NCBI GenBank assembly: GCA_040235405.1
Contig: JBECKT010000051.1
Coordinates: 6,879-70,878, forward strand
Reading direction: 5' to 3'
Source of the DNA: Alcanivoracaceae bacterium
Lineage (GTDB): Bacteria > Pseudomonadota > Gammaproteobacteria > Pseudomonadales > Alcanivoracaceae
DNA length: 64,000 nt
Both the position numbers and the translations under genes were made by a program. Below the pieces are notes generated by a model. It had not been told where the DNA came from. It searched no databases and was given only the letters and a program-made list of their open reading frames with translations. Below are positions 37,315 through 59,941 of the stretch, one piece after another. Within the stretch, counting starts at the first letter, position 1, and each line of letters begins with the position of its first letter.

Positions 37315-37392
37315 AACCTGCCTCCACGCGATCACCGCGTTTTATCTGTTGCCTGTGGCCAAGTATAGCCATGACCGGTCAAGGGCGTGTCA

Positions 37393-40182: not shown

Positions 40183-42489
40183 ATGTCTGCCCTGTCGATT
40201 CCCCGTCCCCGCACCAGCCTGTTCGGTTACCCCCGATACTGGGCGGAATGCTTTGGCACGGCGCCGTTCCTGCCGATGTCCCGGGCGGAGATGGACCAGC
40301 TTGGCTGGGATTCCTGCGACATCATCATTGTCACCGGCGATGCCTATGTCGACCATCCGTCATTCGGCATGGCAATTGTAGGCCGTTTGCTCGAAGCTCA
40401 GGGGTTCCGGGTCGGCATCATTGCCCAGCCGGACTGGACCTCGAAGGACGCCTTTATGGCGTTGGGCCGGCCGAACCTGTTCTTCGGCGTCGCTGCCGGT
40501 AACATGGATTCGATGATCAATCGCTACACCGCTGATCGCAAACCACGCTCCGACGACGCCTATACCCCGGGCGGCGAAGCCGGCAAGCGCCCGGACCGCT
40601 GCTCGCTGGTGTACTCGCAGCGCTGCAAGGAAGCCTGGTCGGATGTGCCGGTAATTCTCGGCGGCATTGAGGCGTCACTGCGCCGCATTGGCCATTACGA
40701 TTACTGGCAGGACAAGGTGCGCCGTTCCATCCTGCTCGACGCCACCGCTGATCTGTTGCTGTATGGCAATGCCGAACGCGCCGTGGTCGAAGTGGCCCAT
40801 CGTCTGGCCCGCGGCGAAACCATCGACAGCATCACCGATGTTCGCGGCACTGCCTTTATCCGTCGCGACACGCCGGAAGGCTTCTGGGAAATCGATTCCA
40901 CCCGAATCGACCGACCCGGCCGGGTTGATCGCATCATCAATCCCTACGTCAACACCCAGGAGATGGATGAATGTGAAGTGGAACGCCGTAACAACCCGAT
41001 GCTCGGCGTCAGCATCAACGACAACGGCGAACAAGTGGTGCAGTTGCTGCCGCACCCGAAACTGAAACGCGACCAGACCGTGATCCGCCTGCCATCGTTT
41101 GAAAAGGTACGCAACGATCCGGTGCTGTATGCCCACGCCAGCCGGGTACTGCATCTGGAAACCAACCCGGGCAACGCCCGCGCGCTGGTCCAGCGTCATG
41201 CTGAAATTGATGTCTGGCTGAATCCGCCGCCGATTCCGCTGACCACCGAAGAAATGGATTACGTATTTGATCTACCTTACGCCCGCTCGCCGCACCCGGC
41301 TTACGGTGATGCGAAAATTCCGGCCTGGGACATGATCCGCTTTTCCGTCAACATCATGCGCGGCTGCTTCGGTGGCTGCACCTTTTGCTCGATCACTGAG
41401 CACGAAGGTCGCATTATCCAGAACCGCTCGGAAGAATCGGTGCTGCGCGAAATCGAACAGATCCGCGACAAGGTCAAGGGCTTTACCGGCGTGATTTCCG
41501 ATCTCGGCGGGCCCACTGCAAACATGTACCGGATTGCCTGCAAAACCCCGGAAATCGAGGCAGCCTGCCGCAAGCCGAGCTGTGTTTATCCGGGCATCTG
41601 CGAAAATCTCAACACTGATCATTCGCACCTCACCCAGCTGTACCGCAAGGCGCGTAATATCAAGGGTGTGAAAAAAATCCTGATCGCTTCCGGCTTGCGT
41701 TACGATCTGGCAGTGAAAGACCCGGAGTATGTGCGCGAGCTGGTGACGCACCATGTCGGCGGTTATCTGAAGATTGCCCCGGAACATACCGAGCAGGGGC
41801 CGCTGTCGAAGATGATGAAGCCAGGTATCGGTTCCTACGATATTTTTCGCGAGATGTTTGAACGTTTTTCAAAAGAAGCCGGCAAGGAACAGTACCTGAT
41901 CCCCTACTTTATCGCTGCCCACCCGGGCACCACCGATGAAGACATGATGAATCTCGCACTATGGCTGAAGCGCTACGGTTTCCGTGCCGATCAGGTGCAG
42001 GCGTTCTATCCATCGCCGATGGCCAGCGCCACCGCCATGTATTACTCCGGCAAGAACCCGCTGCGCCGGGTGACCTATAAAAGCGATGCCATCGAGTCAC
42101 CGAAGACACCGGAGCAACGCCGCCTGCACAAGGCGTTCCTGCGTTACCACGACCCGAGAAACTGGCCGCTATTGCGCGAGGCACTCAAGCGCATGGGCCG
42201 TGCTGACCTGATCGGTGACGGCAAGCATCAACTGATTCCGAAAACCCAGCCGACCGATGCCCGCGACTATCAGGCGCCACGGCGAAAAAATTCCAGCGAT
42301 GCCCACCAGCGTCGCACCGGCCCCGGCAGCGCGCCGGCCAAAGGCAAGATCCTGACCCAGCACACTGGCCTGCCTCCGCGCGAGCAAACTGCCGACAAGG
42401 CAAGGCCTGCTGGCAGAGCAGCCAGTGGCGGGCGCAAGCCGCCGGGAAGTCCGCGCCAGCGGCCCGGTAAAAACAGAACACCCCACTAG
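40183..42489 (+). CDS. ygiQ: YgiQ-family radical SAM protein (UPF0313)
   Basis: [36 protein letters not shown], radical [12 protein letters not shown], and a basic low-complexity C-terminal tail. Start chosen at ATG 40183. Confidence 0.9.
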
Positions 42490-43736
42490 CGGGAACCATT
42501 AAACTGACGCATGGCGCGGAGAAACTCCTCGGCGCGGAAACGATGCTGATCCGACAGGCTCTGGTACAGGCCGTCCAGCGCCGCGCTATCACCCTGCAAT
42601 TGCTCGGTCAGCAATGCCATCAGCATCAGCACCTGCTCGGCGGTCATGTAGTCGTTAAAGGTTGCATCCAGAGTGTCTGCCTTCATGCGCTGGAGCAGCC
42701 GCCCGGCATCCGGGCCAGACAACTTGCCATTACGCAAGCGCACCAGAGTGTCATCAAGCTGGCGAATCAGTGCGCCACTGGCCTGCTGGATCGCCTCGCG
42801 GCCCTGCTGACTGGCGCCATGCAAACCGGCGACGCCGGTTTTCCAGCGCGCTGCGGCAGCCGGATCACTTGCCTCCAGCATCCAGCCCACCATCAGCAAA
42901 CTGCTGTCATTCAGCCGTACCGCGCCGGGCCGCAACTTGCCGGCGGCGCGTGGCCGCCATTTATCCGCATTCATCGGTGCATGGCAGGCGTGGCAGTCGA
43001 AGAATGCCAGCTCCGGCCACAGCGGCGTTGCCATAAACTGCTGGCCGCGCAAACCCTCGAGCACGTTGCGGGCGCTACGCAACTGCCCGGCCACCCATAG
43101 CTGCAGGGATTGCGGCGACTGTTTGCGGGCACGGTAAGCATCATCATCACGATGATGTGATGGCCACAGCCGGCTGTAGGTGGCCAGCTCGAACTGCAAC
43201 CGCGGGTGCCCGGCGCCCATGATGTCGTGACTGGCAAGCCGCTCACTGTCGCCGACGTGGCAAGCAACACAGACCGAGGCACGCACATCGGCATCCTGCA
43301 ACAGTGTCAGACCGCGGGCGATATTGTCCTCGTGGGTGACCCCCTTCTCCGTATGCGAGGACAGCCAGCGCCGGGAGCCACCGTGACAGGCTTCACAACC
43401 GACACCATCGGTCAGCTGGAAACGCGGGCCGCGTTGTTCCTTCGGCACATAATCACTGTGGCAAGCAAGACAGACCTTCGCTTCGTGAGCCGGACCGATA
43501 CCGAGCTTGGTAGCAATTTCCTTCGAATCACTATTGAGCAAAGTGTTGTAAGCGCCGGCATGAGGATCACGCTGCCCCCAGATCACATACTCGCTATGAA
43601 AAATATTGGCGCCACTGCGCTCGGTGCTGCTGCCATGGCAAACCGAAGAGGCACAACTGGCCACGCCCATATGTTTGTCTGCGGCCAGCACAACCCCGGT
43701 CACAACCAGCAACCCGAGCAGGATGAATCGTTTCAT
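42486..43736 (-). CDS. Periplasmic multihaem c-type cytochrome (4 CxxCH + 1 CxxxxCH) with a helical non-haem C-terminal half
   Basis: Signal peptide [18 protein letters not shown]. Motifs CASSVCH (CX4CH), CLACH, CEACH, CVACH and CHACH. The ATGA start/stop overlaps the upstream gene. Confidence 0.8.
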
Positions 43737-46700
43737 CGTTTGCCTCCGCTGCGGCTGACCTTGTCACTGACAAACCAGGGCTCACCCTTTTCATTCAGGA
43801 ACAGGCGGCGCATTTCTTCCAGTGTGAAAGGCCGCGAGCCATGCCGACCGAATACCGCCACCTGACCACCGGTCTCATCCACCGCCCGATCACGCTCAAG
43901 TCCACGTGACAACGACAACGCCGGATAGCGGGTTTTCGCCCTGGCGATCAACTGCGGCACCGGGGCCGGATTGAAGCCGTAGAAATTCGGCTGACTGGCC
44001 GGCGATGTTAACTGAAGCACTTTGAGGCCACCCTCACCATCGGCCACATAGGCAAATGCAGACGCATTGGTGCTGGCCACGATCACATCATGACTGTCCT
44101 GCAAGGCGCCCTCGGCAGTGAAGCGTTGATACAGCGACAGCTTCTCCGGATTCTCCATATCAATGATGACCAGACCATCCTTGCCGGCCGCAACATAGGC
44201 ATAAGCCCGGGCAATATGAATACCACGGGCCTGATCCAGGGCGATGGTGTTGTCCGGAATCAGGCTGGCCTGCTCCGGCAAGGTCACATCAATAGCGCTG
44301 ACACCACCGGCATGGCTGACCAGCAGATAGCGGAACTGCAAGGCACTGGCACGGACATCCTCAAGAGCAATCTGCCTCACCAGCTTCGGCGCCAATGGCT
44401 CATCCAGATTCAGTATCACCAGCGCCTTTGGTGTAGCGATATAGGCATAATGGCCACCGAGAATGACATGGCGGGCACCGTCCAGTACCCCGTTTTCATT
44501 CCAGGTAACGGCGCGCTCAAGGTGATTATTACGGAACTCGCCATCGGCAAAGGTGGTGATATCGGCAAGGATCAAACCTTCCTCGGCATCGGTAATCACC
44601 GCATAGGAATAGATCGGGTGGAACGGCTGCTCAAGGTTTTCCACTCGCATCAGGTCGCCGACGTTACGCTGTGGCGCCACCGGCTGGGTGGTCGCCAGTG
44701 CCATGCAGGTAGCGTTACGGCTTGGCACCCTGGCGTTGTGACCCAGCGGGCTGAACGGCGCGGTAATGATCCGCTGCGAGACGCCCTTGTTATCAATGCC
44801 GGCGATATCGTAAACGCGGAAGCCGTTCTTGCCTTCGGCGACATACAGATACTCACCGCGCATCTGCACACAACCGGCTCGATCACCGGCATGGCTGTAC
44901 TGCTCCGGCAAATCCAGATCACGGCGCAAGTGCTGCTGATACCAGTCCGGGTAGGCATAGCGATGCAGGTAGGAACCGTAAACGGCTTGCGGCTCGTCCC
45001 ACTCGGTCACCGCCACCGCCTGCAAACCACCCTCACCGCCCACCCAGGCAAACCGGCCGACAAAGTTGATGTAGTTGGTACCAAGCATCAACAGCTGCGC
45101 CATGATCGCATTGTTGTCATTGTCTTCGGACAGATGGCAATCGGTACAGGTCTTGGTTTCCGTACGCCGCTCGGTATGCGGATAGTGCGGATTAAATGCC
45201 TGTGAGCTGTAACCACTGGCCGATACCGGCGGCTGCTGGATATAGATGCGTTCACGGTTCGAGTTGGTAGAGCTTAATACCAATGCCGAGGTAGAACGGG
45301 TCGGCGCAATTCTGGCGTCATGCACCGGGCCACGCTTGCCGAGCATAAACATTTCGTCACGCGCCACCTGCGGATTGTAGGTGGCGTAGTTGCGGGTTTC
45401 TCCGCCTTCGTAATGATGTCGTTCGGTTTTCCAGTTCGCCTCAATCGGCAGGTGGCAGCCGCCGCAGGAGGTAGTCCAGGAGGTGTGGCAGGTATAACAC
45501 TCGAAGTCCTCGTCACGGTGGGCCCGCTGGCCGGATTTTACCGACAGCCCCCACGCCAGCGAGTTGGTATCGCGGCTCATCAGCTTGGCCCGGGCCGCCT
45601 TGGCATTGTACTGACCATGTTTCGGATTGACCGAGTCCTTGACCAGACTCATGGTCCACTCCAGCCCCGGCGTCAACAACGAACGCTGAATCAGTTTGCC
45701 GTTAACCCATTCAAAGCGCTTTTTACCATCCGGGTTGCGCAGTATCGACAGGTCCTGACCACCGGCTGGCGCGGCAGCGCCACTGGTGCGCAGGCTCGGA
45801 TAACTGTCCGCAGTGCCATGGCAGTCCTTGCAGCCAATTTCCACGGCATGACCTACCTCGCCGTACAGATGGCCATTGCCATGGCTGTCCTGACTGAAGT
45901 GGCAGTCCACACAGTGCATGCCGACATCGACATGAATCGAGGAAAGGTGCACCGCCTTCTTGAATTTTTCCGGATCCTCGGCAGAGACCTGATCGCCTTC
46001 GGCATCGAGCAGATTGCCTTCCCGGTCACGCTTGAACACCGCCCGGAAATTCCAGCCATGGCCATGGTAGTCGGCAAACTGGGTGTCTTTCAGCTTCGGG
46101 TTCATCTCCCAGACTGATGAGAGGAAATTCAGATCCCGCCATTTGCCGCGCGCCACCGCCCCTTCCGGATTGCGATCATAGACATCGCGCATTTCCTCGT
46201 CGCTCGGATAATGCTGCTTCTCCGGCCACATGAACGGCGCATCGGCTTCGTAATCCCACATGGTGTAACCGAGGTAGGTGTTCATGAACATGTTCGGCTG
46301 GTGCATGTGACAGACCATGCACTGGCTGGTGGGAATGGCGCGGGTAAACTGATGCTGGATCGGATGACCCGGCTCGTCTTTCGGAATCAGCGGGTCACGG
46401 CTGGCGCTTAATCCCCAGTGGCCATGTTTGGCATAGGGACCGCTGTGGCGCGGATCGCGATCATTGCCATACACCACATGGCAGGAGGCGCAGCCGGAGC
46501 TGCGGTAGTCGCCGGGCTGATCATTGGAGCCAAGGAACCACATCAGCGGATCATTGAGACGGGTTTTAGTGATATTGATCAGCGGCACGGCAATCCGTGC
46601 ACCAGTGCCGGCACCGCGATTCGATTGCTTCACATCCGGCCGGCCCGGTTCCTCCAAACGCTGGATCTGACCAAGTGAATTGGGAATGCCGATTTCCGGG

Positions 46701-47479
46701 AACAGGCTGTTGATATTGCGGCCACCGTCTTCGAACACCCGGAACACATCGGCGGGCTTGACGGTTTCCCAGGCCGGCAGCGGCAGCAGCGTTTTCAGTG
46801 CGCCGAAGCGATGGCTCATGTCTTCTGTCGGCACCATCAGTGGCGTGACCGCTGCCGGTTGTCCGTCGCGGCTATAGGCCTCGCCCAGGATGTAGCGCTT
46901 GTACGGCAAAATGCCGTTGTTATAGGAGGCGCCGCCCCAGAGCATGGCGCCGGTGGCCATAATTGAACGCTCGGCAGCAAGAATCTGCGGCATATGACAA
47001 CTGCCGCAGGCTTCACGAACAATGCGGTAATCGGACGGATTGACGAAGCGGATATATTCCGGCGCTTCCTTGTTCAGCAGGGTGTAACTGATCGGTGGAT
47101 TACTGCTGCGCGGCCAGCGCCATTTGTCGGCATAGTCTGGCAATACATGGGCCTGCTTCATCGCTTCCATAAAGGCCGGATCATCGCGATTGCTGTTCGC
47201 CGGCTTCTGCACACCGGCATTGCCACCATGACAATCGGTGCAGCCCAGGACCACCGCCGGGTTGGCGTGCATGGTCTTGCTATCGGAAGCGCCGTGACAG
47301 CTGCCGCAGCCACTGCTTTTGCGTACCGCTTCGGCGGGTGATTGCCAGGCCGGTGCCGATGGCGCTGCCACCCGGTTTTCCTGCTTGACCACCGGCGCCT
47401 CTACCGCCGGCAACAAAACAGGCAACAACAGCATTAGTGCCGTCATCCATGCCTGCCAGAGCTGAAGTCCGTGTCTCAT
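43733..47479 (-). CDS. Secreted decahaem c-type cytochrome fused to a C-terminal LVIVD-repeat beta-propeller
   Basis: Signal peptide. Ten CxxCH motifs: CGSCH, CTDCH, CGSCH, CASCH, CMVCH, CVDCH, CKDCH, CYTCH, CGGCH, CTDCH. In the last ~450 aa there are at least 6 LVIVD-type repeats (YLYVAEGKNGFRVYDI, EEGLILADIT, YAYIATPKALVILNLDEP, AYAYVAAGKDGLVIIDMENP, AFAYVADGEGGLKVLQL). Confidence 0.85.
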   Translation of the reverse strand: MRHGLQLWQAWMTALMLLLPVLLPAVEAPVVKQENRVAAPSAPAWQSPAEAVRKSSGCGSCHGASDSKTMHANPAVVLGCTDCHGGNAGVQKPANSNRDDPAFMEAMKQAHVLPDYADKWRWPRSSNPPISYTLLNKEAPEYIRFVNPSDYRIVREACGSCHMPQILAAERSIMATGAMLWGGASYNNGILPYKRYILGEAYSRDGQPAAVTPLMVPTEDMSHRFGALKTLLPLPAWETVKPADVFRVFEDGGRNINSLFPEIGIPNSLGQIQRLEEPGRPDVKQSNRGAGTGARIAVPLINITKTRLNDPLMWFLGSNDQPGDYRSSGCASCHVVYGNDRDPRHSGPYAKHGHWGLSASRDPLIPKDEPGHPIQHQFTRAIPTSQCMVCHMHQPNMFMNTYLGYTMWDYEADAPFMWPEKQHYPSDEEMRDVYDRNPEGAVARGKWRDLNFLSSVWEMNPKLKDTQFADYHGHGWNFRAVFKRDREGNLLDAEGDQVSAEDPEKFKKAVHLSSIHVDVGMHCVDCHFSQDSHGNGHLYGEVGHAVEIGCKDCHGTADSYPSLRTSGAAAPAGGQDLSILRNPDGKKRFEWVNGKLIQRSLLTPGLEWTMSLVKDSVNPKHGQYNAKAARAKLMSRDTNSLAWGLSVKSGQRAHRDEDFECYTCHTSWTTSCGGCHLPIEANWKTERHHYEGGETRNYATYNPQVARDEMFMLGKRGPVHDARIAPTRSTSALVLSSTNSNRERIYIQQPPVSASGYSSQAFNPHYPHTERRTETKTCTDCHLSEDNDNNAIMAQLLMLGTNYINFVGRFAWVGGEGGLQAVAVTEWDEPQAVYGSYLHRYAYPDWYQQHLRRDLDLPEQYSHAGDRAGCVQMRGEYLYVAEGKNGFRVYDIAGIDNKGVSQRIITAPFSPLGHNARVPSRNATCMALATTQPVAPQRNVGDLMRVENLEQPFHPIYSYAVITDAEEGLILADITTFADGEFRNNHLERAVTWNENGVLDGARHVILGGHYAYIATPKALVILNLDEPLAPKLVRQIALEDVRASALQFRYLLVSHAGGVSAIDVTLPEQASLIPDNTIALDQARGIHIARAYAYVAAGKDGLVIIDMENPEKLSLYQRFTAEGALQDSHDVIVASTNASAFAYVADGEGGLKVLQLTSPASQPNFYGFNPAPVPQLIARAKTRYPALSLSRGLERDRAVDETGGQVAVFGRHGSRPFTLEEMRRLFLNEKGEPWFVSDKVSRSGGKR

Positions 47480-47485
47480 AATGCC

Positions 47486-49216
47486 TCAGTACGTCAATAT
47501 CAGGTTGCCGAGAATCGAATAGCGCGAGTCCCGCTCGAACAGGTCGTCAAAACCTTCGCCGGGCAGCAACTGCGCCACCGACAAACGGCCGACAATGTTC
47601 TGGATCGCCAGCGGCCGCCAGATAATGGCAGCGGAAATATCCCAACCGATTTCCCGGTCGATATTGTCCTGCTGGCGTAACACCTCGATCACTTCGGTGC
47701 GATCAAAGGCAAGATGATTGGCGTTGAAACTGAGCCGGGCAGTCGGGGTCAGGTCCAGATCGGCACCAACACCGAGCAACCGCAGTCCCGGATTGGTGAA
47801 GTTGGACTGGCCGTGCTCTTTCGACGAACGCAGGTTCGGCAACAAACCATTACGCGTTGACAGGGTTACCCCGCCGCCGGCAATAAAGGGCACGCCCTGA
47901 CGGATCCAGAAGCTGGTGTCGGCACCGGCAATAATCGGGTTCTCGAACACCGCATCGAAGCCGGTCTCGACTTTATCAAACGGATTGCGATCACCGGAAG
48001 CATGCACACCGGTGGCGCGCAGACGAATCCAGTCAAAATCAATACCCGCTTCAAAGGCAGCAAAGCTGGCGCGCACCTCGGTGGTCTCATCGTTCATGAC
48101 CCCGGGGGCGTTGCGGCCACTGGCGGCGTACAACGACGTGGTCAGATTCAGGCGGCCAAGATGGCCATCACCGTTGTAACCCAGATAGGTGACGTCATAG
48201 CTGCGCGGCACTTCCCGGCCAAGCGAGGCGGGACGGGCAATAAAGCCGTTATCGTCATAGAAGAAACTGTCCTCCCGATTACGGTTATGCAGCAGGCTGA
48301 ACTGGCTGATAAACCCCAGCTTGAGAAAATCCTGCCAGTACAGGTTGGCAACGAAAACATCATCGTCGCGGAAACGGGCGGTAACATCGTTCAGGCCGCT
48401 GTTGGTGTCTTTTTCCAGACGCCGGAACCAGGCCAGGTTGTACTGGAAGATATTGTTGTCCCGGGTGCCGAACAGGCGCACACCGAACGGGCTGTCCTGA
48501 AACAGAAAGCCGCGAAAATCCGCATTGAACGGCTGGATGCCAACGCGAATACTGTCGAAGTCGTATCGGTCGGAGACATTACGGATGTGGTAGTCAACAA
48601 AAGCGCCCTGCACGCCGACATGGCCATCGGTACGGGTATCGCCGTCACGCGGGTCGATATACAGGGCACGGACCTCCTCCACCTCAGTGCGGTTGAAGTT
48701 AAACACCGGGATAAAGCGGAACTCCCAGTCCGGCGGTCGAAACACGGTATCGCCACGTAACCAGACCAGTTCCACCAACAGGTTCTGATTGAAAGTCACC
48801 TGCTCGCCACTGCCGAACACATCAATATCACCGCTGTCGCCGGTGGTCTGGTTGCCTACCGGGGTGGGAATATCACGCAGCTCCAGCACGGTATCGGATA
48901 CTGCGGTCAGCGAGAAGAACCATTCGCCCCGGACCGGCTTGTCACCCTTTAAGACATTACGTTGGTAGGGATTCCACAGGCTGTGGTTGTAACCCGGCAG
49001 GCTATCAACAATGCGCCAGCGATCCGGCACTGCCTGCAACGGCTGATCCTGAAACAGCGGCGCGGCGGGAATGGCATTGTCGTCGCACAGCACTTGCTGA
49101 CGCGCTTCAACCTTTTTGCCCGGCAGACGAATTTGCGGCTGCTGATCCGGCTCAGGACATTCCGCCTGTGCCAGCAGCGGCATCAGCAGCAACATGAAAA
49201 GCGGGAGGCGATGCAT
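47486..49216 (-). CDS. Probable outer-membrane beta-barrel protein
   Basis: Signal peptide MHRLPLFMLLLMPLLAQA. Alternating hydrophobic beta-strand patterning runs throughout, rich in aromatics, Gly, Asn and Asp. The C-terminus ends with an aromatic residue (...GNLILTY). I cannot assign a family with confidence. Confidence 0.6.
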   Translation of the reverse strand: MHRLPLFMLLLMPLLAQAECPEPDQQPQIRLPGKKVEARQQVLCDDNAIPAAPLFQDQPLQAVPDRWRIVDSLPGYNHSLWNPYQRNVLKGDKPVRGEWFFSLTAVSDTVLELRDIPTPVGNQTTGDSGDIDVFGSGEQVTFNQNLLVELVWLRGDTVFRPPDWEFRFIPVFNFNRTEVEEVRALYIDPRDGDTRTDGHVGVQGAFVDYHIRNVSDRYDFDSIRVGIQPFNADFRGFLFQDSPFGVRLFGTRDNNIFQYNLAWFRRLEKDTNSGLNDVTARFRDDDVFVANLYWQDFLKLGFISQFSLLHNRNREDSFFYDDNGFIARPASLGREVPRSYDVTYLGYNGDGHLGRLNLTTSLYAASGRNAPGVMNDETTEVRASFAAFEAGIDFDWIRLRATGVHASGDRNPFDKVETGFDAVFENPIIAGADTSFWIRQGVPFIAGGGVTLSTRNGLLPNLRSSKEHGQSNFTNPGLRLLGVGADLDLTPTARLSFNANHLAFDRTEVIEVLRQQDNIDREIGWDISAAIIWRPLAIQNIVGRLSVAQLLPGEGFDDLFERDSRYSILGNLILTY

Positions 49217-51147
49217 TATTTGCCTCCGCAGGGTGTCTGTTCATTGCTGTCGAGAAACGGTGCCTGCGGACACTGCACATAACGCAGCCGGGTGCCGTGC
49301 GGGGCCAGCTGGTCGGCGCGCATCATTACCGGCGCATTGTTGATGCTGCCAAGCAGCTCACCGGCCTGATGCACGGACAGAAACGAAATCATGTCATCCT
49401 GATCAATGCCGTCACCGGATACCCCAATGGCACCGACCAGTGTGCTGCCACGGTAGATCGGCACACTGCCGGGGAAAATCTGGGTGCCATTCGCCACCGG
49501 GTCGACATTGCCAGCGGATGTCACACGACTGATGGCGCTGCACCCCTCGGCGACATCAACACCACTCAGGCCGGCGGCAAAAGCAACATGACCAATAAGC
49601 TGGTTATAGACCAGATCCAGCTGCAGGCCGGTGGAGAACGGACTCCACTGCCCTTCCGGTTTCGATAAAGGTCCGGGCGGCGCACTGCGCAGACCATCCG
49701 GGAAATACGGCCGCGACAGATTACCGCCGGCGCGATCACTAAAAGCGTAGGCGCCATCGGCAAGCGCTGAAGGCAGATCCAGAAAGGTGCGTAGCGCATC
49801 AACGTAATCACCGATATCAACACTGGTTGCCACGGTCGGCGCACCAGCGACCAGTACCGGGCCAAGATAATCCGCCGTCGGCAGCGCCTGTAACTCTGCG
49901 GCCGCCTGCGTGCCTGAATAAAATGCAGCAGTACGCGCCTTCTGCAACGACACATCAGTACCGAACAGTGGCGCATCGCGGGTCCGCACCAGCCCCAGCA
50001 CCACACCATTACGATCCACCACACTGATGCTGACCCGTGCCTGACTTCCAAGTGGCCGACGAATCTGGGCCCGGGCGCGACTGGCAATCAACAGCGCCTG
50101 ATCCAGCACTGCAGTGACTTCAGTCTGGGTCAGCGCACCGGGGCCATCACTGGCGGCGACTGGCGGGAAGCGCGGCGTGTCGGTGGCATCTACCAACACG
50201 AAGGCATCGCGGCCGGGGAAAAAGTTTTCGGTATCGGCACGAATACCGGAACCGCTTTGGGTAAATGTCTGACCGGCGATAATGCCGCCACCGGCATTGA
50301 AGTAACCCGGCACACTAACCAGCGCACCGGTCAGACTGGCAAACGCCGGCACCGGCAGAGACCGGGTCTGCACCATCGCCACGCTCATATCGCTGTAACG
50401 CAGCTGCTTGCCTTCAACGGTGATGCGTTCGGCACGACGGTCCGCCGGCGCCAGCAAACCGCGACTACCAGCCAGCGCCACCACTTCATCCAGTGACTGA
50501 TCGCGATCAAACAGACTGTCATCGAAACTGTAGCGATCATCCACCACTACACCGATACCGCCGATAACGGTGCCATCGCGATACAGCGGGAAGCCGCCCG
50601 GATCAGCGGACAACCCCAGCGGAGCATGCTTGGGGCCGTGGCTGCCATCGGTCACACGCACCGTCAGATCGGAACAGGCCAGCTGGGAGAACTGCACGCC
50701 AAACAGGGGCCCGGCCGGCTGATTGCGCTCGCCCGGATTGAAATGCTCCTGCACGATCTGGCTGGCGGTGCGTGAACTGAAGGCATTGCCCTCGCTGGAC
50801 AGATAAGCGCCGGTGACCGCCTTGCTGATCGCTGCCAAGGTGGCCGGAATAAAGCTGATATTTTCCAGACCGCCGCTGACCGGATAGGGCGATGCAATAG
50901 TTACCGCATCAACTGCGCCAACCATCTGATACACGGCCAGAATATTGCCAACCCGGTCAGACACGGCAATGGTAGCCGCGACGCCACGCTGATCCGCCTC
51001 CAGTGCAGCCGCTGCAATAATGCTTTCGACATCCGCAGCGGAGAGAAAGCTGGCCGGGCTGACACAGCTGCCATCACAGCCGCCATTCGATAACGAATCG
51101 CCGCCACAACCGGCCAGCAGCAGACACAGCCCGATCAGCCGTTTCAC
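49216..51147 (-). CDS. Lipoprotein with two tandem GlcG/HbpS-like (DUF336, haem-binding/haem-degrading superfamily) domains
   Basis: Lipobox LLLAGC after a GTG start. Domain 1: ATIAVSDRVGNILAV...GGFPLYRDGTVIGGIGVVVD. Domain 2: SISVVDRNGVVLGL...LQKARTAAFYS...GSVPIYRGSTLVGAIGVSGDGIDQDD. Compare E. coli GlcG: GGVPVVVDGQIIGAVGVSG. Confidence 0.7.
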   Translation of the reverse strand: MKRLIGLCLLLAGCGGDSLSNGGCDGSCVSPASFLSAADVESIIAAAALEADQRGVAATIAVSDRVGNILAVYQMVGAVDAVTIASPYPVSGGLENISFIPATLAAISKAVTGAYLSSEGNAFSSRTASQIVQEHFNPGERNQPAGPLFGVQFSQLACSDLTVRVTDGSHGPKHAPLGLSADPGGFPLYRDGTVIGGIGVVVDDRYSFDDSLFDRDQSLDEVVALAGSRGLLAPADRRAERITVEGKQLRYSDMSVAMVQTRSLPVPAFASLTGALVSVPGYFNAGGGIIAGQTFTQSGSGIRADTENFFPGRDAFVLVDATDTPRFPPVAASDGPGALTQTEVTAVLDQALLIASRARAQIRRPLGSQARVSISVVDRNGVVLGLVRTRDAPLFGTDVSLQKARTAAFYSGTQAAAELQALPTADYLGPVLVAGAPTVATSVDIGDYVDALRTFLDLPSALADGAYAFSDRAGGNLSRPYFPDGLRSAPPGPLSKPEGQWSPFSTGLQLDLVYNQLIGHVAFAAGLSGVDVAEGCSAISRVTSAGNVDPVANGTQIFPGSVPIYRGSTLVGAIGVSGDGIDQDDMISFLSVHQAGELLGSINNAPVMMRADQLAPHGTRLRYVQCPQAPFLDSNEQTPCGGK

Positions 51148-52820
51148 GGCATCACCTCGGGCAGGTCGGCATGATCCAGTTCAAACTGGTGATAGTTGTG
51201 ACAGCTGATGCAACCGGAAAGCAGCCCCTGCTTCTGCTGCTGGCCGACATGACATTCCTGACAGACGGCAATGTCCGGCATCAACACATCTGCAGTCTCC
51301 ATGGACTCGTTGGCGGCATGGCAGTCGGCGCATTCGGTTTGGGTGTGACGAACATGGGGAAATTCGCCGGAGACAAACCAGTTTTCATTCAGCCGTACCG
51401 GTTTGACAAACCACTGGGGCGGCTGCTCGCTGACCCTGTCCACTTCATGACAGCTGACACAGGCACGGCGCTCGAACATATCCTCTGCCACCGCCTGACT
51501 CTTTTTTTCCACCCAGGCGACGCCTTCGCGCTGCAACTGGCTGAGGTTATCGCGCTGGCCCGGTCTTAATGCCCGGATATCACCGGCGTCAGCGCGGTCC
51601 TGGATAAAGCGGCTGCTGTAGTACTCACGCAGATTAGCCAGCACCTGATCCGGCTTACCATGCGGCACGACCCGATTCGGATCGACTGGATCAAACGCCA
51701 GGCCATGGCAGCGGGCACAGTGTTGCTCCATCTTCACCGGCGCCATGTTAATGCCGTCCAGTGCCATCTCATGGCAACTGTCGCAACTCAGCACTTCCCA
51801 GTCGCCGTCATTATTCTTGATGCCTTCGACATCCAGATGCCCGGCGTGATCAAATTTCAGGTTGCTGTTATCGTGCAGGGATTCATCTACCGTCAGCCGC
51901 GGGCTCTGCAACCACTCGCGACTATCGTCCTGCCACTGCAGCATGCTCAGGCGGAACGCTGGATGATCGGCATGGAAGTCCGTTGCCTTGCCGACCTGTG
52001 GCTCACTGCCCATGCGCTGGTCAAGGCTGGCATGGCAATCGGCACAGAAGCGCTGATCCTCAAACACCATGCGCTGCTCGCCGTTATGTTCATGATGACA
52101 AGAGGCACAGCGCTCGCCATCAAACAGACCGGCATCCGGATGCCCTGCCGGCACATGCAAAGCGGTTTCTTCATGACAGGCAACGCAGGTATCGTTGCTG
52201 ACTTTCTCAAACGGTTTGGTGTGACAGGCCTGACAATCCTTGCCAATGGTGCTGTGCACCGAATGCAACTCGCCACTCAACCACAGGCTGTCATCCGGCA
52301 ACGGCGTATTACGCAGCACATTCTGAAATTCCGGCTTTAGCGTCACCAGTGCCGGCAACAACAGCGCTGCAACCAGCAACACAAGGAACAGCGCCCAGGC
52401 CCAGCGACGCGGACGCCAGAGCGTCAATGCATCCAGCCGGGTAACAAACTTCGCCGGATCAATCGACGGCGCTTCCTGTTGCTCCAGCACCTCCAGACTG
52501 AGCGCCAGATCAACACCGTCCGGCGCGGCAATCACGATCAGGCGATAGTCACCGATCAGGATCTGGTCACCGGTATTCAGCACCGCCATCTTGCAGCTGC
52601 GACCATTTACCGTGATGCCGGTACTGGCCAGCGCACGAATCCGGAACTGACCGGCACTCAGGGAGATTTCCGCGTGCTGGTAGGCAACCCGGTCGCCGGG
52701 CAACAACAATTCCTGATCGGTACCACGACCTATGCTGAGCTGATCAACCGCCAGCTCTTCATCCTTGTAGCTTCGATTCTGACCGCTGCCAGCGCCGAGA
52801 CGGCGTATCAATACATACAT
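51144..52820 (-). CDS. FHA domain - single TM helix - periplasmic decahaem c-type cytochrome
   Basis: N-terminal FHA-like LSIGRGTDQELLLPGDRVAYQHAEI...ITVNGRSCKMAVLNTGDQILIGDYRLIV. TM helix RRWAWALFLVLLVAALLLPALV (positive-inside). Ten CxxCH motifs: CQACH, CVACH, CASCH, CADCH, CDSCH, CARCH, CVSCH, CADCH, CQECH, CISCH. The start is ATG 52820 or TTG 52850. Confidence 0.8.
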   Translation of the reverse strand: MYVLIRRLGAGSGQNRSYKDEELAVDQLSIGRGTDQELLLPGDRVAYQHAEISLSAGQFRIRALASTGITVNGRSCKMAVLNTGDQILIGDYRLIVIAAPDGVDLALSLEVLEQQEAPSIDPAKFVTRLDALTLWRPRRWAWALFLVLLVAALLLPALVTLKPEFQNVLRNTPLPDDSLWLSGELHSVHSTIGKDCQACHTKPFEKVSNDTCVACHEETALHVPAGHPDAGLFDGERCASCHHEHNGEQRMVFEDQRFCADCHASLDQRMGSEPQVGKATDFHADHPAFRLSMLQWQDDSREWLQSPRLTVDESLHDNSNLKFDHAGHLDVEGIKNNDGDWEVLSCDSCHEMALDGINMAPVKMEQHCARCHGLAFDPVDPNRVVPHGKPDQVLANLREYYSSRFIQDRADAGDIRALRPGQRDNLSQLQREGVAWVEKKSQAVAEDMFERRACVSCHEVDRVSEQPPQWFVKPVRLNENWFVSGEFPHVRHTQTECADCHAANESMETADVLMPDIAVCQECHVGQQQKQGLLSGCISCHNYHQFELDHADLPEVMP

Positions 52821-52824
52821 GGCA

Positions 52825-53715
52825 TCACCAGTAGAAGAACACGCTGACAATATGCGCCGTCAGCGTTGCCAGCAGTGCCAGCGTCAGCGGGATATGGCAG
52901 TACAACCAGATCTCCATCAGCCCCTGCAGACGGATATCTTTAAGTAACTGTTTCACCAGTCTGGCTTTACGCGAGACCAGATCGATCAGCTCCTGCAGCA
53001 GCGCCGCTTCCTTGGGATCCGTGCTGCGTGACAGCAACCCGGTCAACTCATCCAGTAAGCGTTGCTGGTGCGAATTACTGACCCGCTTCCAGCTCTTCTG
53101 CTTTTTCCTGACCTCGCTGATCATCATTCGCGAACGGTCACGCCCACCGAGTTGCTGCCAGACGCCACCGCCAACCTGAAACAATTGAATGGCGGAAATC
53201 ACCATCCGGTCTGCCGGTGAGCCGAGACCTTCAACAATCAGACTGGCCTTGCGATCAATATCGGCAATCTCGCGGAAGATCAGATCGCGAGTCATGCCAT
53301 CACGGTTGCGGGTAATACGATTCGGGTAACGCCAGTACACCCAGCCACCATAAAAGCCGCTGACGATAACCAGCACCATCAACAGCCAGGCCAGTGTGTG
53401 AATGTTCAAACCAAACTGAAAGCCGCTATGCAGCGTGCCCACCACCAGCAGTGAACCGCCCAGGTAAACGTGCGCAGACAACCAACCCTTGACGCTGCCG
53501 ATACGTGAGTAATAGGCGCGCTTGCGCACCCCGAACAGGGTCAGCCAGACAATCAGCAATGCGGCAATAGTGCCAAGGGTATAACCCAGCCAGGTACCGC
53601 CATTAGGCAACCCGATCGGTTCGTGCCAGACGTAGGCAACAACACTGGCCAGTACCAGCACCAGCGCAAACCAGAACCAGAAGCCGCCACGGTGAGAGAG
53701 GAAAGAGCCGTGCAT
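52825..53715 (-). CDS. Five-TM membrane protein with two H-x13-H pairs (candidate di-haem cytochrome b)
   Basis: The ATG at 53715 lies 7 nt after GGGAGGA. TM3 is AHVYLGGSLLVVGTLH (His codons at 53470-53472 and 53428-53430). TM5 is CHIPLTLALLATLTAH (His codons at 52894-52896 and 52852-52854). A ~130-aa soluble helical loop lies between TM4 and TM5. Confidence 0.6.
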   Translation of the reverse strand: MHGSFLSHRGGFWFWFALVLVLASVVAYVWHEPIGLPNGGTWLGYTLGTIAALLIVWLTLFGVRKRAYYSRIGSVKGWLSAHVYLGGSLLVVGTLHSGFQFGLNIHTLAWLLMVLVIVSGFYGGWVYWRYPNRITRNRDGMTRDLIFREIADIDRKASLIVEGLGSPADRMVISAIQLFQVGGGVWQQLGGRDRSRMMISEVRKKQKSWKRVSNSHQQRLLDELTGLLSRSTDPKEAALLQELIDLVSRKARLVKQLLKDIRLQGLMEIWLYCHIPLTLALLATLTAHIVSVFFYW

Positions 53716-53717
53716 GC

Positions 53718-56099
53718 TCAATCCTCCCTGACCAGTTCAATAAACTGCTCCGGACTGATCCGCACCGCCGCGCCGGTCGGGCAGGCGCGCACACAGGCCG
53801 GGCCACCCTTGAGGTTGGCACACATGTCACACTTCACTGCTCGCTTCGGTGCGTCCTTGGCCTTGACCTTTTTGTGCTCGGCGCCGAACAGCACCCGGCT
53901 CCACAGCCCCGGCTGGGAACCACCGATCGGCGCCATCTGGATCACACCATAGGGGCAGTTGCTTTCACAGTTACCACAGCCGATGCAGTTGTCGGCAATC
54001 ACCACCTCGCCACTGGCATTACGACTGATCGCATCCGGCGGGCAATCTTTCATGCAATGCGGATGTTCGCAGTGACGACAGGAAGTCGGCACATGGATTG
54101 AGGCATAGCTTGGCCCGGCCTCACGATTCAGCCGCGAGGTACCACCGTGGGTGGAAGCGCAGGCGGTCTCACAGTTATCGCAACGCACGCACAGGGATTC
54201 GTCGATCAGCAACACATCGGTGGCTTCGCCCAGACCCTGACGCATCAGGAACGACAGCAGCTCACCACCTTCCGAGGAAGATTCCATGCTGGCATTGGCA
54301 CGCAGCCGCGCCTGCAGCTGCGTCTGCACCTGCGCCTTCAGTTTCGGGTCTCGCTCCAGCAAGGCGAGGAACGGCTCGCTTTTCATGACCACGGTTTCGG
54401 TCGGCACCACGGCGCGTACCGAAGCGGTACGGCGGGAATTACCAAGCAACCCCATTTCACCGACATATTTGCCCGCCGGCACATAGGACAGCACCACCTC
54501 GCGGCCTTGCAGGTAACGGGAAACCGTCAGTGAACCACGCCGCACCAGATGCAGCTCGTCACCGCTCTCGCCTTCGGCGAACAGGACCTCGCCGGGAGCG
54601 TACTGACGCAGCTCTGCCGAGTTCACCAGATCGGCCAGATCCTCCAGATTGGCGTTCGGCGCAAACTGGGAATGAATCGCACGCAGGATAAACACCTGAT
54701 CAATCCGCCGCCGCACTTCATCCACCGACGACAGCAATCGCAACATGGTCCGGCGCGGGGTTTCCACCAGCACACAATAGCGACCGGCATAAACCGTGGC
54801 ATTACGACGCCGGCCGGAAATCAGGCCCATCTCGCCAAAGAACTGACCTTCGCCAATGGTAACCCGTTTGCCGGTCTGTTCATCAATCTCGACCTCCACC
54901 GAACCTTCCACGACTGAGTAGAACGAGTTGGTGTAGTCATTGCGAGAGAAGATCACCTCGCCCGCCTTCGGCATGTGCACTTCGCTTTCCAGAATCAGCT
55001 CACGGAAACGCAGGCTGTTGACGGGACCGAAACAGAGCACATTGTTTTTGATCTTCTCCAGCGTCTGCTCGACGTCCAGTCCGAATGGCAAGCCAGAGAA
55101 CTTCTTTGCCAGCAAGCCATGATCCACCGGCTTGATATCGCGACCGAGAATATGCTCGATCACTTCATAACCCTGATTCATGGCCTGCTTGATCAGCGGA
55201 TAACCAGCCAATGCGCCGATCACATACAAGCCCGGCACATTCGATTCGTACTGATGAGTCAGTTCCGGCACCGCATTGGTTGATTTATTGGGAAACTGGA
55301 TGCCACAGGATTCGACAAAATCACGCGGCGGAATAGCGCCCAACCGGGCAATGATCCGATCCACTGGCACCTGCACTTCACCTTCGCCGGTACTCAGCGA
55401 CACCTGGGCCCGATGCTCACCATTACCCTGCACTTCAATACTACGCAGACTGCTGTTGAAAAATACCCTGATACGGCCGCGCTCAATGGCATCCTCAAGC
55501 AGGCTCAGGTTTCCTTCTTTGGCACGGGCAAATTCGTCGCGGCGATTGATCAGCGACACCTTGTTCTGGCGGGCCAGTGCCAGCGCGTTTTCAATCGCCG
55601 AATCCCCGGCGCCGACCACCATGATTTCTTCGTTCTGATATTCGTCCGGATCATCCAGCTGGTATTGCACAAATGGCTGGTCTTCACCCGGCACACCGAG
55701 CTTGCGTGGATTACCCTGCAGACCAATGGCCAGCACCACATGCTTTGCTCGCACGCTTTTGCCGCTGCGTGTCTGCAGCACGAAATCACCGCGTTGGCCA
55801 CTGATGGCCGTGACATCAGCATTCCAGCCAACCTTGATGCCAAGTTTTTTGGCATTCTTCAGCCAGACGGCAAGGATGTCCTCACGACTGCCAGCATCAA
55901 ATGGCAGGCTGCTACGCAACGGCAGAAGGCCTGGCTCCGCCATGACGTGCTTGCCTTTCTGATAGCGCTGAATGGTATTGGCCAGATGGGTCGTGCTTTC
56001 CAGCAACAGGTGCGACAACCCCAGTTCAGCGGCACGGCCAGCGGCGCTGAGGCCCGCCGGGCCGGAGCCGACAATAACAACTTCAAAACGGTTTTCCAT
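53718..56099 (-). CDS. Cytoplasmic fusion protein: FAD/NAD(P)-dependent pyridine-nucleotide-disulfide-type oxidoreductase + 2 cyclic-nucleotide-binding domains + four-cluster [4Fe-4S] ferredoxin
   Basis: Dinucleotide motifs VVIVGSGPAGLSAAGRA and IMVVGAGDSAIENA. cNMP motifs FFGEMGLISGRRRNATVYA and YVGEMGLLGNSRRTASVRA. Cys motifs CVRCDNCETAC, CRHCEHPHCMKDCP, CIGCGNCESNCP and CDMCANLKGGPACVRACP. No signal or Tat motif. Confidence 0.85.
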   Translation of the reverse strand: MENRFEVVIVGSGPAGLSAAGRAAELGLSHLLLESTTHLANTIQRYQKGKHVMAEPGLLPLRSSLPFDAGSREDILAVWLKNAKKLGIKVGWNADVTAISGQRGDFVLQTRSGKSVRAKHVVLAIGLQGNPRKLGVPGEDQPFVQYQLDDPDEYQNEEIMVVGAGDSAIENALALARQNKVSLINRRDEFARAKEGNLSLLEDAIERGRIRVFFNSSLRSIEVQGNGEHRAQVSLSTGEGEVQVPVDRIIARLGAIPPRDFVESCGIQFPNKSTNAVPELTHQYESNVPGLYVIGALAGYPLIKQAMNQGYEVIEHILGRDIKPVDHGLLAKKFSGLPFGLDVEQTLEKIKNNVLCFGPVNSLRFRELILESEVHMPKAGEVIFSRNDYTNSFYSVVEGSVEVEIDEQTGKRVTIGEGQFFGEMGLISGRRRNATVYAGRYCVLVETPRRTMLRLLSSVDEVRRRIDQVFILRAIHSQFAPNANLEDLADLVNSAELRQYAPGEVLFAEGESGDELHLVRRGSLTVSRYLQGREVVLSYVPAGKYVGEMGLLGNSRRTASVRAVVPTETVVMKSEPFLALLERDPKLKAQVQTQLQARLRANASMESSSEGGELLSFLMRQGLGEATDVLLIDESLCVRCDNCETACASTHGGTSRLNREAGPSYASIHVPTSCRHCEHPHCMKDCPPDAISRNASGEVVIADNCIGCGNCESNCPYGVIQMAPIGGSQPGLWSRVLFGAEHKKVKAKDAPKRAVKCDMCANLKGGPACVRACPTGAAVRISPEQFIELVRED

Positions 56100-58439: not shown

Positions 58440-58469
58440 TTTGTTGCATGACATACCCGGCGGTGGTCC

Positions 58470-59939: not shown

Positions 59940-59941
59940 CC

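Follow-up and report, generated by a model that had tools for sequence, protein, structure and literature searches.

The window analysed here, a 64-kb stretch of contig JBECKT010000051.1 from an Alcanivoracaceae bacterium, carries seven open reading frames (ORFs), all on the minus strand at positions 42486-56099, whose products are designated P1 to P7 in transcription order. Taken together, their domains and cofactor motifs lead us to favour, tentatively, a system for regulated electron export fed by cytoplasmic NAD(P)H, in which a large multihaem cytochrome, P6, would act as terminal reductase together with a lipoprotein (P4) and an outer-membrane barrel (P5). The inner module of this system, composed of P1, P2 and P3, appears anatomically coherent as an electron conduit from NAD(P)H to the periplasm. 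The gene arrangement is not a product of chance, since the same order is found in dozens of genomes spread over three classes of Proteobacteria.

A preliminary description of this stretch had reported seven tightly packed genes with the parts of a trans-envelope electron conduit, and the ORFs, their positions and their junctions are borne out by direct reading of the sequence. P1 and P2 meet at a TGA-2 nt-ATG junction preceded by GGGAGGA, P2 and P3 are separated by a 4-nt gap, P3 and P4 share a GTGA overlap and P4 and P5 a TAATG overlap, a 6-nt gap lies between P5 and P6, and P6 and P7 overlap by ATGA. As read off these junctions, a purine run resembling a Shine-Dalgarno sequence appears to stand just 5' of every start. 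The inventory of cofactor sites also holds, and with it the parts list and the predicted compartments: there are 25 c-type haem sites (10 in P3, 10 in P6 and 5 in P7), two invariant H-x13-H pairs, 16 invariant iron-sulfur cysteines, a flavin domain and two domains that bind cyclic nucleotide monophosphates (cNMP). The haem motifs of the three cytochromes are all invariant across 56-58 homologues, and the Pfam profiles for Pyr_redox, cNMP_binding, Fer4, FHA, HbpS-like and LVIVD domains were all matched. Outside P3, P6 and P7 no ORF with more than one CXXCH motif was found across the 64-kb window, and the GC content of the cluster is similar to that of the remainder.

P1 (793 aa, 53718-56099) is, according to Pfam and a sequence search of the Protein Data Bank (PDB), a fusion of flavin, cNMP-binding and iron-sulfur parts. 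Residues 1-320 form a two-dinucleotide-binding FAD/NAD(P)H domain similar to thioredoxin reductase (TrxR) and YpdA (Pyr_redox_2/3; Pyr_redox_3 E-value 6.7e-36), and residues 4-300 match thioredoxin reductases and TrxR-type ferredoxin-NADP reductases in the PDB. No redox-active CxxC disulfide motif is seen in this flavin domain. The segment NRRDEFARA, located after the second GxGxxA, appears to resemble HRRDxFRA, the NADPH 2'-phosphate site of Escherichia coli TrxR. The tandem cNMP_binding domains that follow (~345-600; two Pfam stretches, E 6.4e-39) match, over residues 345-581, the tandem cyclic-nucleotide domains of PKA regulatory subunits, and the C-terminal polyferredoxin (~630-790; Fer4_11/Fer4_7), with four [4Fe-4S] motifs, matches HycB3 (7qv7), HycB4 and HydN-type tetra-cluster proteins over residues 631-790. 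All 16 cysteines of these four ferredoxin-type motifs are invariant in 50 homologues. P1 contains no hydrophobic segment and its ligands are cytoplasmic, so that the protein is taken to be cytoplasmic. Its architecture suggests a reductase fused to its own ferredoxin.

P2 (296 aa, 52825-53715), analysed by alignment and by an AlphaFold2 (AF2) model, is a five-helix inner-membrane protein and a candidate dihaem cytochrome b; it and P6 are the two components of the cluster without characterized relatives. The model is confident (pLDDT 83.5) and places helices at residues 12-31, 42-63, 75-97 and 105-129, a last long helix ending at residue 295, and a helical/hairpin insert of ~130 residues (131-260) between transmembrane helices TM4 and TM5. 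Five histidines (H82, H96, H106, H274 and H288) are shared by all 45 homologues aligned, and four of them form the pairs H82/H96 on TM3 and H274/H288 on TM5, each with H-x13-H spacing. By the positive-inside rule, the insert is predicted to be cytoplasmic, H82 and H274 would lie near the cytoplasmic face and H96 and H288 near the periplasmic one. Placement near both faces is the geometry required for two stacked b-haems. P2 reaches the cut-off of no Pfam or NCBIfam family. Its homologues match PF01292 (prokaryotic cytochrome b561) in 38 of 45 cases, all below threshold (best E 8.6e-5; 10.1 bits against a cut-off of 30.1, E 0.69, for the window protein), and DUF4405, again below threshold, in eight of the 45; PF01794 does not figure among the 25 families most frequently matched by P2 homologues, even at E-values up to 1. 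We regard P2 as a novel candidate for a five-helix dihaem cytochrome b.

The third component of the inner module, P3 (558 aa, 51144-52820; Pfam and motif count), joins an N-terminal cytoplasmic FHA domain (~13-100; Pfam E 6.5e-10), closest to GarA/OdhI, to a periplasmic decahaem part (196-541; Pfam Cytochrome_C7 and Cytochrom_c3_2) by way of a single hydrophobic, transmembrane helix (~137-165). Its 10 CXXCH motifs are invariant in 58 homologues, in which the FHA domain also keeps its Gly-Arg, His and Asn-Gly residues. The P3 family is large: 706 clusters, formed at 50% identity, score E<1e-30, and the 150 matches listed are mostly near full-length (~540-690 aa). Searches of plasmids with P3 and P2 returned only the Sphingobium megaplasmids that bear the cluster, and a distant FHA-cytochrome protein (P0482), searched in metagenomes for other contexts, gave no match; in an alignment of distant representatives, no conserved stretch suitable as a query was present.

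The remaining four proteins make up a second module, of which the most conserved member is P6 (1248 aa, 43733-47479; Pfam and motif count), a decahaem cytochrome with a C-terminal LVIVD beta-propeller (~860-1200; Pfam E 3.9e-16). A strict pattern found four LVIVD-like repeats, and the 10 CXXCH motifs, all invariant, are spread across ~800 residues. Conservation is stronger in the haem-bearing part than in the propeller, and the former combines a low haem density with many invariant non-haem residues. The hydrophobic N-terminus looks like a Sec signal peptide; neither a lipobox nor a known surface-sorting signal was seen in the P6 sequence. Among solved structures P6 has no relative by sequence or by profile search, and its family matches are weak: a 'choice-of-anchor B' match in NCBIfam, 19.9 bits against a cut-off of 30 for PF22113 of the MtrC/OmcA family, and a 17-bit NCBIfam match to NrfH, the sole trace of a quinol dehydrogenase family in the proteins tested. 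A literature search for LVIVD repeats combined with multihaem cytochromes found only an unrelated Tenderiales LVIVD protein. The absence of a match to a characterized pathway, anticipated in the preliminary description, is thus upheld, NCBIfam matches being all sub-threshold.

P5 (576 aa, 47486-49216), first described as a probable outer-membrane beta-barrel, is indeed modelled as such by AF2, with 18 strands and a pTM of 0.72, and Foldseek assigns it to the AlgE type. The top structural match is AlgE itself (3rbh, E 8.2e-17, probability 1.0, TM-score 0.63-0.67 normalised to target), followed by OccK/OprD porins, and MtrB is not in the best 50. The window protein has no Pfam match, including to PF13372 (Alginate_exp), which is matched by six of 45 P5 homologues at E-values up to 1e-4, and several homologues are called 'Alginate export family protein' in UniRef. 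The C-terminus ends in ...LILTY. At the other end lies an extension of ~95 residues that is disordered in the model yet conserved, with a strongly conserved motif, PDRWR…G…PY..N..K.D.P, in residues 1-95; it may act as a plug or tie the barrel to P6 or P4, among other possibilities.

P4 (643 aa, 49216-51147, with a GTG start) was identified as a lipoprotein by its lipobox (LLAG-C14, with Gly at +2) and contains two GlcG/HbpS-like (PF03928) domains, for which Pfam gives an HbpS-like match in three stretches (E 4.7e-22). Weak PDB matches are to EfgA, NahX and the PduO C-terminal domain, all GlcG-like, and to a haem-binding protein; 'heme-binding protein' is also the NCBI name of the Sphingobium orthologue. 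P4 has four invariant cysteines, no invariant histidine and no c-haem motif, and without an invariant histidine haem binding is not indicated. P7 (416 aa, 42486-43736; Pfam and PDB sequence search) is a pentahaem cytochrome with four CXXCH motifs and one CX4CH (CASSVCH), five further histidines that are invariant in 56 homologues, and a hydrophobic N-terminus taken to be a signal peptide. The N-terminal part of P7 is similar to cytochrome c554 (Pfam Cytochrome_C554, E 2e-10; PDB 1bvb, E 4e-5), and its C-terminal half is poorly conserved.

The cluster is widespread in ecologically important aerobes. P6 homologues, ~1,240-1,290 aa in length, fall in more than 7,960 clusters at 90% identity, and the best 120 are 1,231-1,325 aa long, 65-95% identical and all generically named, as are the source names among the matches listed (e.g. 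'hypothetical protein'). A scan of one genome per species found P6 in the Gamma-, Beta- and Alphaproteobacteria, in at least 598 genomes. Gammaproteobacterial carriers include Haliea, Halioglobus and other Halieaceae, Spongiibacteraceae, Alcanivoracaceae, Steroidobacteraceae, Woeseiaceae, Lysobacterales, Salinisphaeraceae, Spectribacter, Fontimonas and Granulosicoccus; the Betaproteobacteria are represented by Limnobacter, Burkholderiales and Usitatibacteraceae, and the Alphaproteobacteria by Rhodospirillaceae, Geminicoccaceae, Sphingoaurantiacus and Sphingobium. The closest named relatives of the window cluster are found in Alcanivorax sp. 1008 and in Alcanivoracaceae metagenome-assembled genomes, at 85-89% identity. 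Cultured carriers include Sphingobium herbicidovorans MH, Limnobacter alexandrii LZ-4, Parahaliea maris, Oceanicoccus sagamiensis, Dasania marina and Spectribacter species, and the presence of the cluster in cultured hosts makes the question of its function directly testable.

To establish gene order, the seven proteins were compared by tblastn with 83 loci. On contigs that extend far enough, the order P2-P3-P4-P5-P6 is nearly invariant across the three classes, and all seven genes are co-conserved, P1 and P7 remaining in the cluster and shifting position within it. The conservation of the seven-gene neighbourhood, one of the points on which the preliminary description depended, is thereby confirmed. 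P1 stands upstream in most Gamma- and Alphaproteobacteria, and after P7 in the Betaproteobacteria and in a few loci labelled otherwise. A TPR protein that we read as CcmI-like is found upstream, on the other strand, in 11 mostly betaproteobacterial loci; CcmI takes part in c-type cytochrome biogenesis. One or both of these traits occur in L035, L052, L055, L056, L059, L061, L070, L072, L080 and L081 of our locus set. In Sphingoaurantiacus and on the Sphingobium megaplasmids the cluster is split into [P1 P2 P3] and [P7 P4 P5 P6] on opposite strands; the Sphingobium modules are convergent, with a metallophosphoesterase and small genes in between. Here the whole cluster resides on replicons of ~0.9-1.3 Mb listed as plasmids, one of 12 such records being typed as conjugative, and in S. 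herbicidovorans MH it lies on plasmid pMSHV (locus L084; NZ_CP020539, 800239-825948). This strand split, together with two loci in which P4-P5-P6 stand alone, indicates that the cluster consists of two modules that are nearly always found together.

Conservation, measured as mean pairwise identity over the same 33 genomes for all seven proteins, differs markedly between components. It is highest for P6 (65%, with a minimum of 60%), followed by P5 (53%), P4 (52%) and P1 (52%), and lower for P2 (43%), P7 (39%) and P3 (32%). P6 is thus far more conserved than wire-like cytochromes, and a terminal enzyme fits this pattern better than a wire. The conservation of P6, P5 and P4 and the low haem density of P6 fit an enzyme that works with partners and is shielded from surface diversification. 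A further recurrent trait concerns the genes downstream of the cluster: of 84 loci, 21 encode a PP2C phosphatase there, 17 a double-FHA protein with a membrane anchor and seven a Hanks-type Ser/Thr kinase. These genes, present in L001 (15117-16941), L004, L007, L012-L015, L018, L036, L045, L046 and others, suggest a set of phospho-signalling partners for the FHA domain of P3.

On these grounds, a plausible course of events may be outlined. NAD(P)H would be oxidised at the TrxR-like flavin of P1 and its electrons passed on through the four [4Fe-4S] clusters, a step that the two cyclic-nucleotide-binding domains of the same protein may gate. Two stacked b-haems in P2, one by each membrane face, would then take the electrons over the inner membrane, and the periplasmic ten-haem chain of P3, anchored by one helix, would accept them; provided that all sites are loaded with their predicted cofactors, the flow would run NAD(P)H -> FAD -> 4×[4Fe-4S] -> two b-haems -> ten c-haems. 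The cytoplasmic FHA domain of P3 may provide a second control point, tied in many genomes to the PP2C phosphatase, Ser/Thr kinase and double-FHA protein. Pentahaem P7 would relay the electrons to a terminal complex on the periplasmic side of the outer membrane, formed by lipoprotein P4, barrel P5 and the cytochrome-propeller P6, in which P6 would be the terminal reductase. P5 would serve as a narrow AlgE-like channel that admits or releases a small, possibly anionic, substrate or product, rather than as a cytochrome sheath.

The outward direction is favoured because both redox potential and membrane potential favour it. Since the electrons would leave the negative side of the membrane, such a chain would dissipate energy instead of conserving it. 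A dissipative outward path would need tight control, in keeping with the regulatory domains of P1 (two cNMP) and P3 (FHA) and with the neighbouring phospho-signalling genes. Of the envelope conduit initially put forward, then, the passage from NAD(P)H to the periplasm agrees with the anatomy of the cluster, whereas the extension across the outer membrane does not: an 18-strand AlgE-like barrel does not support a cytochrome wire threaded through that membrane, and the conservation of P6 points to an enzyme.

Several observations weigh against this reading of the cluster as a route of regulated electron export. P2 shows no significant structural match, and no match at Pfam threshold, to any haem protein: the best Foldseek hit in the PDB has an E-value of 0.12, and SpNOX (8qt6) appears only at rank 39 (E 1.8, 129 aligned columns). 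The relatives of P2 in PF01292 are usually quinone-reactive, which makes coupling to the quinone pool a possibility. In the P3 FHA domain, the Ser of the canonical Ser-x-x-His motif, which binds phosphothreonine, is replaced by Ala in the window protein, and the position varies among the 58 homologues, making phospho-dependent gating uncertain, and no PP2C, double-FHA or kinase gene is present in this window (nor is a CcmI-like gene). LVIVD repeats and 'choice-of-anchor B' matches are typical of surface proteins and argue for an extracellular P6. Finally, P4-P5-P6 occur without neighbouring P1-P3 in two loci, L017 and L068, where no alternative cytochrome or quinol dehydrogenase neighbour was found, and P1-P3-like genes occur without P4-P7 in Ferrigenium, so that the two modules can presumably work apart.

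Among the alternatives, the one that survives best, doubtful as it seems to us, is extracellular electron transfer, with P6 at the cell surface and electrons crossing the outer membrane at P5 towards Fe(III)/Mn(IV) minerals, humics, electrodes or O2. Besides the surface-type repeats of P6 and its weak anchor-family match, this proposal draws on the position of the barrel gene, which adjoins a decahaem gene as in porin-cytochrome clusters, and on the 25 haems of the three cytochromes, which would plausibly be enough to span the periplasm. Extracellular transfer has also been proposed for the related ptd cluster discussed below (bioRxiv 10.1101/2023.11.21.568154). The type of the barrel speaks against it, P5 having 18 strands and an AlgE match, with MtrB outside its 50 best structural matches. 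The AlgE lumen fits a single polysaccharide chain, and the 18 strands of AlgE compare with 26 in MtrB, the cytochrome sheath; a barrel of the smaller type cannot enclose a decahaem as MtrB encloses MtrA. Moreover, P6 lacks a lipobox or any surface-sorting signal that we could see, the conservation of P6 and P5 is unusually high for surface-exposed proteins, and the hosts among the matches listed include genera that live as aerobic heterotrophs, namely Haliea, Sphingobium, Limnobacter and Alcanivorax, among which we know of no metal reducer.

A more specific proposal, which we consider unlikely as it stands, is that the cluster is a bacterial counterpart of NADPH oxidase and ferric reductase assembled from unrelated parts, gated by cyclic nucleotide and by phosphorylation, and spending cytoplasmic NAD(P)H on an extracytoplasmic substrate by way of a dihaem membrane protein not known before and a new cytochrome-propeller enzyme, P6. 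Candidate roles would be regulated superoxide production, extracellular or periplasmic, and reductive iron acquisition in the abundant aerobic Proteobacteria of the sea and of soils, for which few of the responsible enzymes have been identified.

We deem it decidedly unlikely that the chain is coupled to quinone, with P2 as a quinol dehydrogenase or quinone reductase and P1 as an accessory or regulatory donor. PF01292 is the sole recurrent family signal of P2 (38 of 45 homologues), its members of the FdnI, HyaC and CybB type are quinone-reactive, and to our knowledge all characterized porin-cytochrome systems draw on the quinone pool. Every one of those PF01292 matches, however, is sub-threshold, the window P2 reaching an E-value of just 0.69; P1 is kept in the cluster over three classes, even where it has moved; and a haem on the cytoplasmic side, beside a tetra-cluster ferredoxin, would suit direct hand-over from iron-sulfur cluster to haem.

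Electron uptake in the opposite direction is improbable. P6 would in that case oxidise a donor in the periplasm or outside the cell, for instance Fe(II), a cathode, or a reduced compound of sulfur or nitrogen, and electrons would pass via P7, P3 and P2 to P1, yielding NAD(P)H. Related FHA-cytochrome clusters do occur in the Fe(II) oxidiser Ferrigenium, for which inward transfer was proposed (bioRxiv 10.64898/2026.01.22.701106). P7, for its part, resembles cytochrome c554. The c554 of Nitrosomonas accepts electrons from hydroxylamine oxidoreductase, and TrxR-type ferredoxin-NADP reductases are reversible. Inward flow would nonetheless run against the membrane potential, for most donors the transfer to the NAD(P)+ couple would presumably be uphill as well, in a cluster without an energy-coupling subunit, and the hosts again include genera of aerobic heterotrophs.

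It is highly improbable that P1-P2-P3 and P4-P5-P6-P7 are two unrelated systems that happen to be adjacent. The opposite strands of the modules in Sphingobium and Sphingoaurantiacus, the solitary P4-P6 of L017 and L068, and the P1-P3-like trio without outer module in Ferrigenium would all be accommodated by independence; against it, the modules adjoin in almost every locus with enough flank in Gamma-, Beta- and Alphaproteobacteria, they are translationally coupled here by the P3/P4 GTGA overlap, and P4-P7 have no other visible source of electrons. Equally remote is a sensing or signalling device in which the cNMP, FHA and HbpS-like parts would report the redox state of the envelope, for even with three signalling-type domains, PP2C, kinase and FHA neighbours in other genomes and the precedent of HbpS, which belongs to a redox-stress sensing system in Streptomyces, the seven proteins contain no output domain (DNA-binding, histidine kinase or cyclase), and 25 c-haems, two b-haems, four iron-sulfur clusters and a flavin would be a very large investment for a sensor.

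If regulated export from NAD(P)H is the right reading, aerobic heterotrophs would send cytoplasmic reducing power past the inner membrane while bypassing the quinone pool, and the cluster would add a new family of membrane dihaem proteins and a new multihaem enzyme of 1,250 residues without a solved relative. The case also bears on annotation: the barrel P5 is of the wrong type for the Mtr model, and calling any cytochrome-adjacent barrel a 'porin-cytochrome' is therefore unsafe.

The surroundings of the operon in the window can be described briefly. The presumed promoter region, assigned from position only, is the 283 nt upstream of P1 (56100-56382), in which a search for sigma-70 consensus sites gave none and which is common to a divergent TPR gene (56383-57552); the latter is not conserved with the cluster and was ruled out as a member. 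Terminator-like matches within the genes, in a promoter/terminator scan, are weak and mostly short stem-loops, and no Rfam family was matched anywhere in the window. Long antisense ORFs on the plus strand lie within P6, P5 and P1 (44090-45205, 45320-46117, 48002-48760 and 55413-56123) and recur in most related loci, tracking the strong conservation of the sense genes; they are regarded as shadow ORFs of those genes and not as genes. Beyond the divergent TPR gene, three co-directional plus-strand genes (57633-63145) resemble the imuA-imuB-dnaE2 damage-inducible mutagenesis cassette, the first being a 268-aa ORF without Pfam match (57633-58439) and the others encoding an ImuB-like protein of the IMS family (58470-59939) and a DnaE2-like paralogue of DNA polymerase III alpha (59816-63145). 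At the other end, a YgiQ-family radical SAM gene (Radical_SAM_N and DUF3362; 40153-42489, plus strand) is convergent with P7 (42486-43736, minus strand), and since their coding regions overlap by 4 nt at the 3' ends, an intergenic terminator would have no space; on L085, the closest relative contig, the two are kept apart by a gene of 221 aa. Some 5-6 kb downstream of the operon are a ferrochelatase gene and a DUF945 gene, at 36238-37335 and 37393-39216 on the minus strand. The closest relative likewise has the DUF945 gene beside the cluster; for the ferrochelatase and DUF945 genes we find no evidence of a link to the operon.

Comparison with known systems is most direct for the barrel. AlgE is the closest structure to P5, and the P5 gene adjoins that of lipoprotein P4; AlgE, too, works with a lipoprotein, AlgK. 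AlgK, however, is a TPR protein, whereas P4 is GlcG/HbpS-like, and P5 has its additional conserved N-terminal extension of ~95 residues. Genes for polysaccharide synthesis are neither present in the flanks of the window nor recurrent beside the 84 related loci. With MtrCAB, MtoAB, PioAB and the Geobacter Pcc clusters, our cluster shares the combination of multihaem cytochromes, outer-membrane barrel and lipoprotein, its 25 c-haems being predicted to lie between the inner and the outer membrane. The components themselves are different: the Mtr-type barrel is a 26-strand MtrB/PioB/MtoB sheath, as opposed to the 18-strand AlgE-like P5; the surface lipoprotein of those systems is decahaem, and here the lipoprotein P4 carries no haem c; and their input is a quinol dehydrogenase, in place of a cytoplasmic NAD(P)H-dependent flavo-iron-sulfur protein. 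No match to the CymA/NapC-NirT, ImcH or CbcL quinol dehydrogenases was found in the seven proteins or in the flanking genes examined. The MtrA/DmsE family (TIGR03508) is matched solely by P7, with 21.3 bits against a cut-off of 192.2, and not by P3 or P6, and the MtrC/OmcA family (TIGR03507) again solely by P7, with 15.4 bits against 209. None of the seven proteins reaches the curated NCBIfam cut-offs for Mtr, Dms, OmcA, Ext, Nrf or Tmc families, and membership in the Mtr, Pcc, DmsE or OmcA systems is ruled out by these scores and by the type of the barrel.

The combination of parts had at first seemed unrecognized, and it does lack a characterized match; two preprints, nonetheless, describe related gene sets. 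The first reports ptdABCDEFG in Alphaproteobacteria of oxygen-deficient zones. Its multihaem proteins are a decahaem cytochrome, a tetrahaem cytochrome and an NrfA-like pentahaem protein that has a beta-sandwich; its other parts are a porin, a membrane protein described as 'ferric reductase-like', an FAD/NAD(P) oxidoreductase and a protein that combines cNMP binding with [4Fe-4S] clusters. The cluster occurs in Alpha- and Gammaproteobacteria and other phyla, and its function is given as 'completely unknown' (bioRxiv 10.1101/2023.11.21.568154). Compared by description only, it is similar in its part types by domain content and in the logic by which NAD(P)H would feed periplasmic cytochromes. 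It differs in having a separate, flavohaemoprotein-like flavoprotein, where P1 has a TrxR-like domain fused to cNMP and iron-sulfur parts, and its description includes no FHA domain and no counterpart of P6 or P4, that is, no LVIVD cytochrome-propeller and no HbpS-like lipoprotein. Its pentahaem protein is NrfA-like and P7 is c554-like, and its tetrahaem cytochrome has no counterpart here. The second preprint places an FHA-nonahaem cytochrome, 'NHC', beside 5-TM and [4Fe-4S] proteins in Ferrigenium straubiae, an Fe(II)-oxidising autotroph; its authors favour inward flow to quinone and leave the function of NHC unknown (bioRxiv 10.64898/2026.01.22.701106). By description, this trio of a cytoplasmic iron-sulfur protein, a five-helix protein without InterPro match and an FHA-TM-multihaem cytochrome corresponds to P1-P2-P3, with nine haems instead of ten, with no P4-P7, and adjoining nirK. 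Gene sets related to the inner module have hence been noticed already, with a putative orthology based on descriptions only, and neither preprint describes an LVIVD cytochrome-propeller, an HbpS-like lipoprotein or an AlgE-like barrel. Searches for other literature on this cluster, including by the Sphingobium accession numbers, found nothing.

The resemblance to NADPH oxidases and ferric reductases suggested in the preliminary description lies in the logic of electron flow and in one structural feature. Like SpNOX and Fre-MsrQ, the inner module would send electrons from NAD(P)H and flavin outward through two bis-His b-haems in a dissipative, tightly regulated process, and P2 has the His pairs on two helices with the 12-14 residue spacing seen in those proteins, haem binding being putative. 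Membership fails on family and on fold; of the defining features, the geometry of the His pairs is the only one shared. P2 has five helices and a large cytoplasmic insert, in contrast to the six-helix PF01794 domain; the NOX dehydrogenase is of the FNR type, and P1 is TrxR/YpdA-like (Pyr_redox_2/3) with four iron-sulfur clusters; and the NOX acceptor is O2 or Fe(III) directly, where P2 would feed a chain of c-type cytochromes. Foldseek, a profile search of PDB sequences, which returned nothing for P2, and the absence of PF01794 from the 25 families most often matched speak against P2 as a NOX/ferric reductase or other known fold, and leave the sub-threshold PF01292 and DUF4405 matches.

In sulfate reducers, the transmembrane complexes Tmc, Hmc and DsrMKJOP link a cytoplasmic iron-sulfur protein and a membrane cytochrome b with a multihaem cytochrome in the periplasm. 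Echoes of them in sequence are weak (NCBIfam matches of P3 to TmcA and QrcA, and of P1 to DsrO). Those complexes have an HdrD-like iron-sulfur protein with CCG domains and NarI/HdrE-like cytochromes b, whereas the iron-sulfur part of P1 is of the HycB/DmsB tetra-cluster type, with no CCG-domain family in its listed Pfam matches, and P2 has no NarI-type Pfam match. Moreover, they run inward from periplasmic H2 or formate, and they lack flavin/NAD(P)H, cNMP and FHA domains and an outer-membrane module. The likeness of the inner module to Tmc, Hmc and DsrMKJOP, and to Fre-MsrQ, would accordingly be one of logic rather than of homology.

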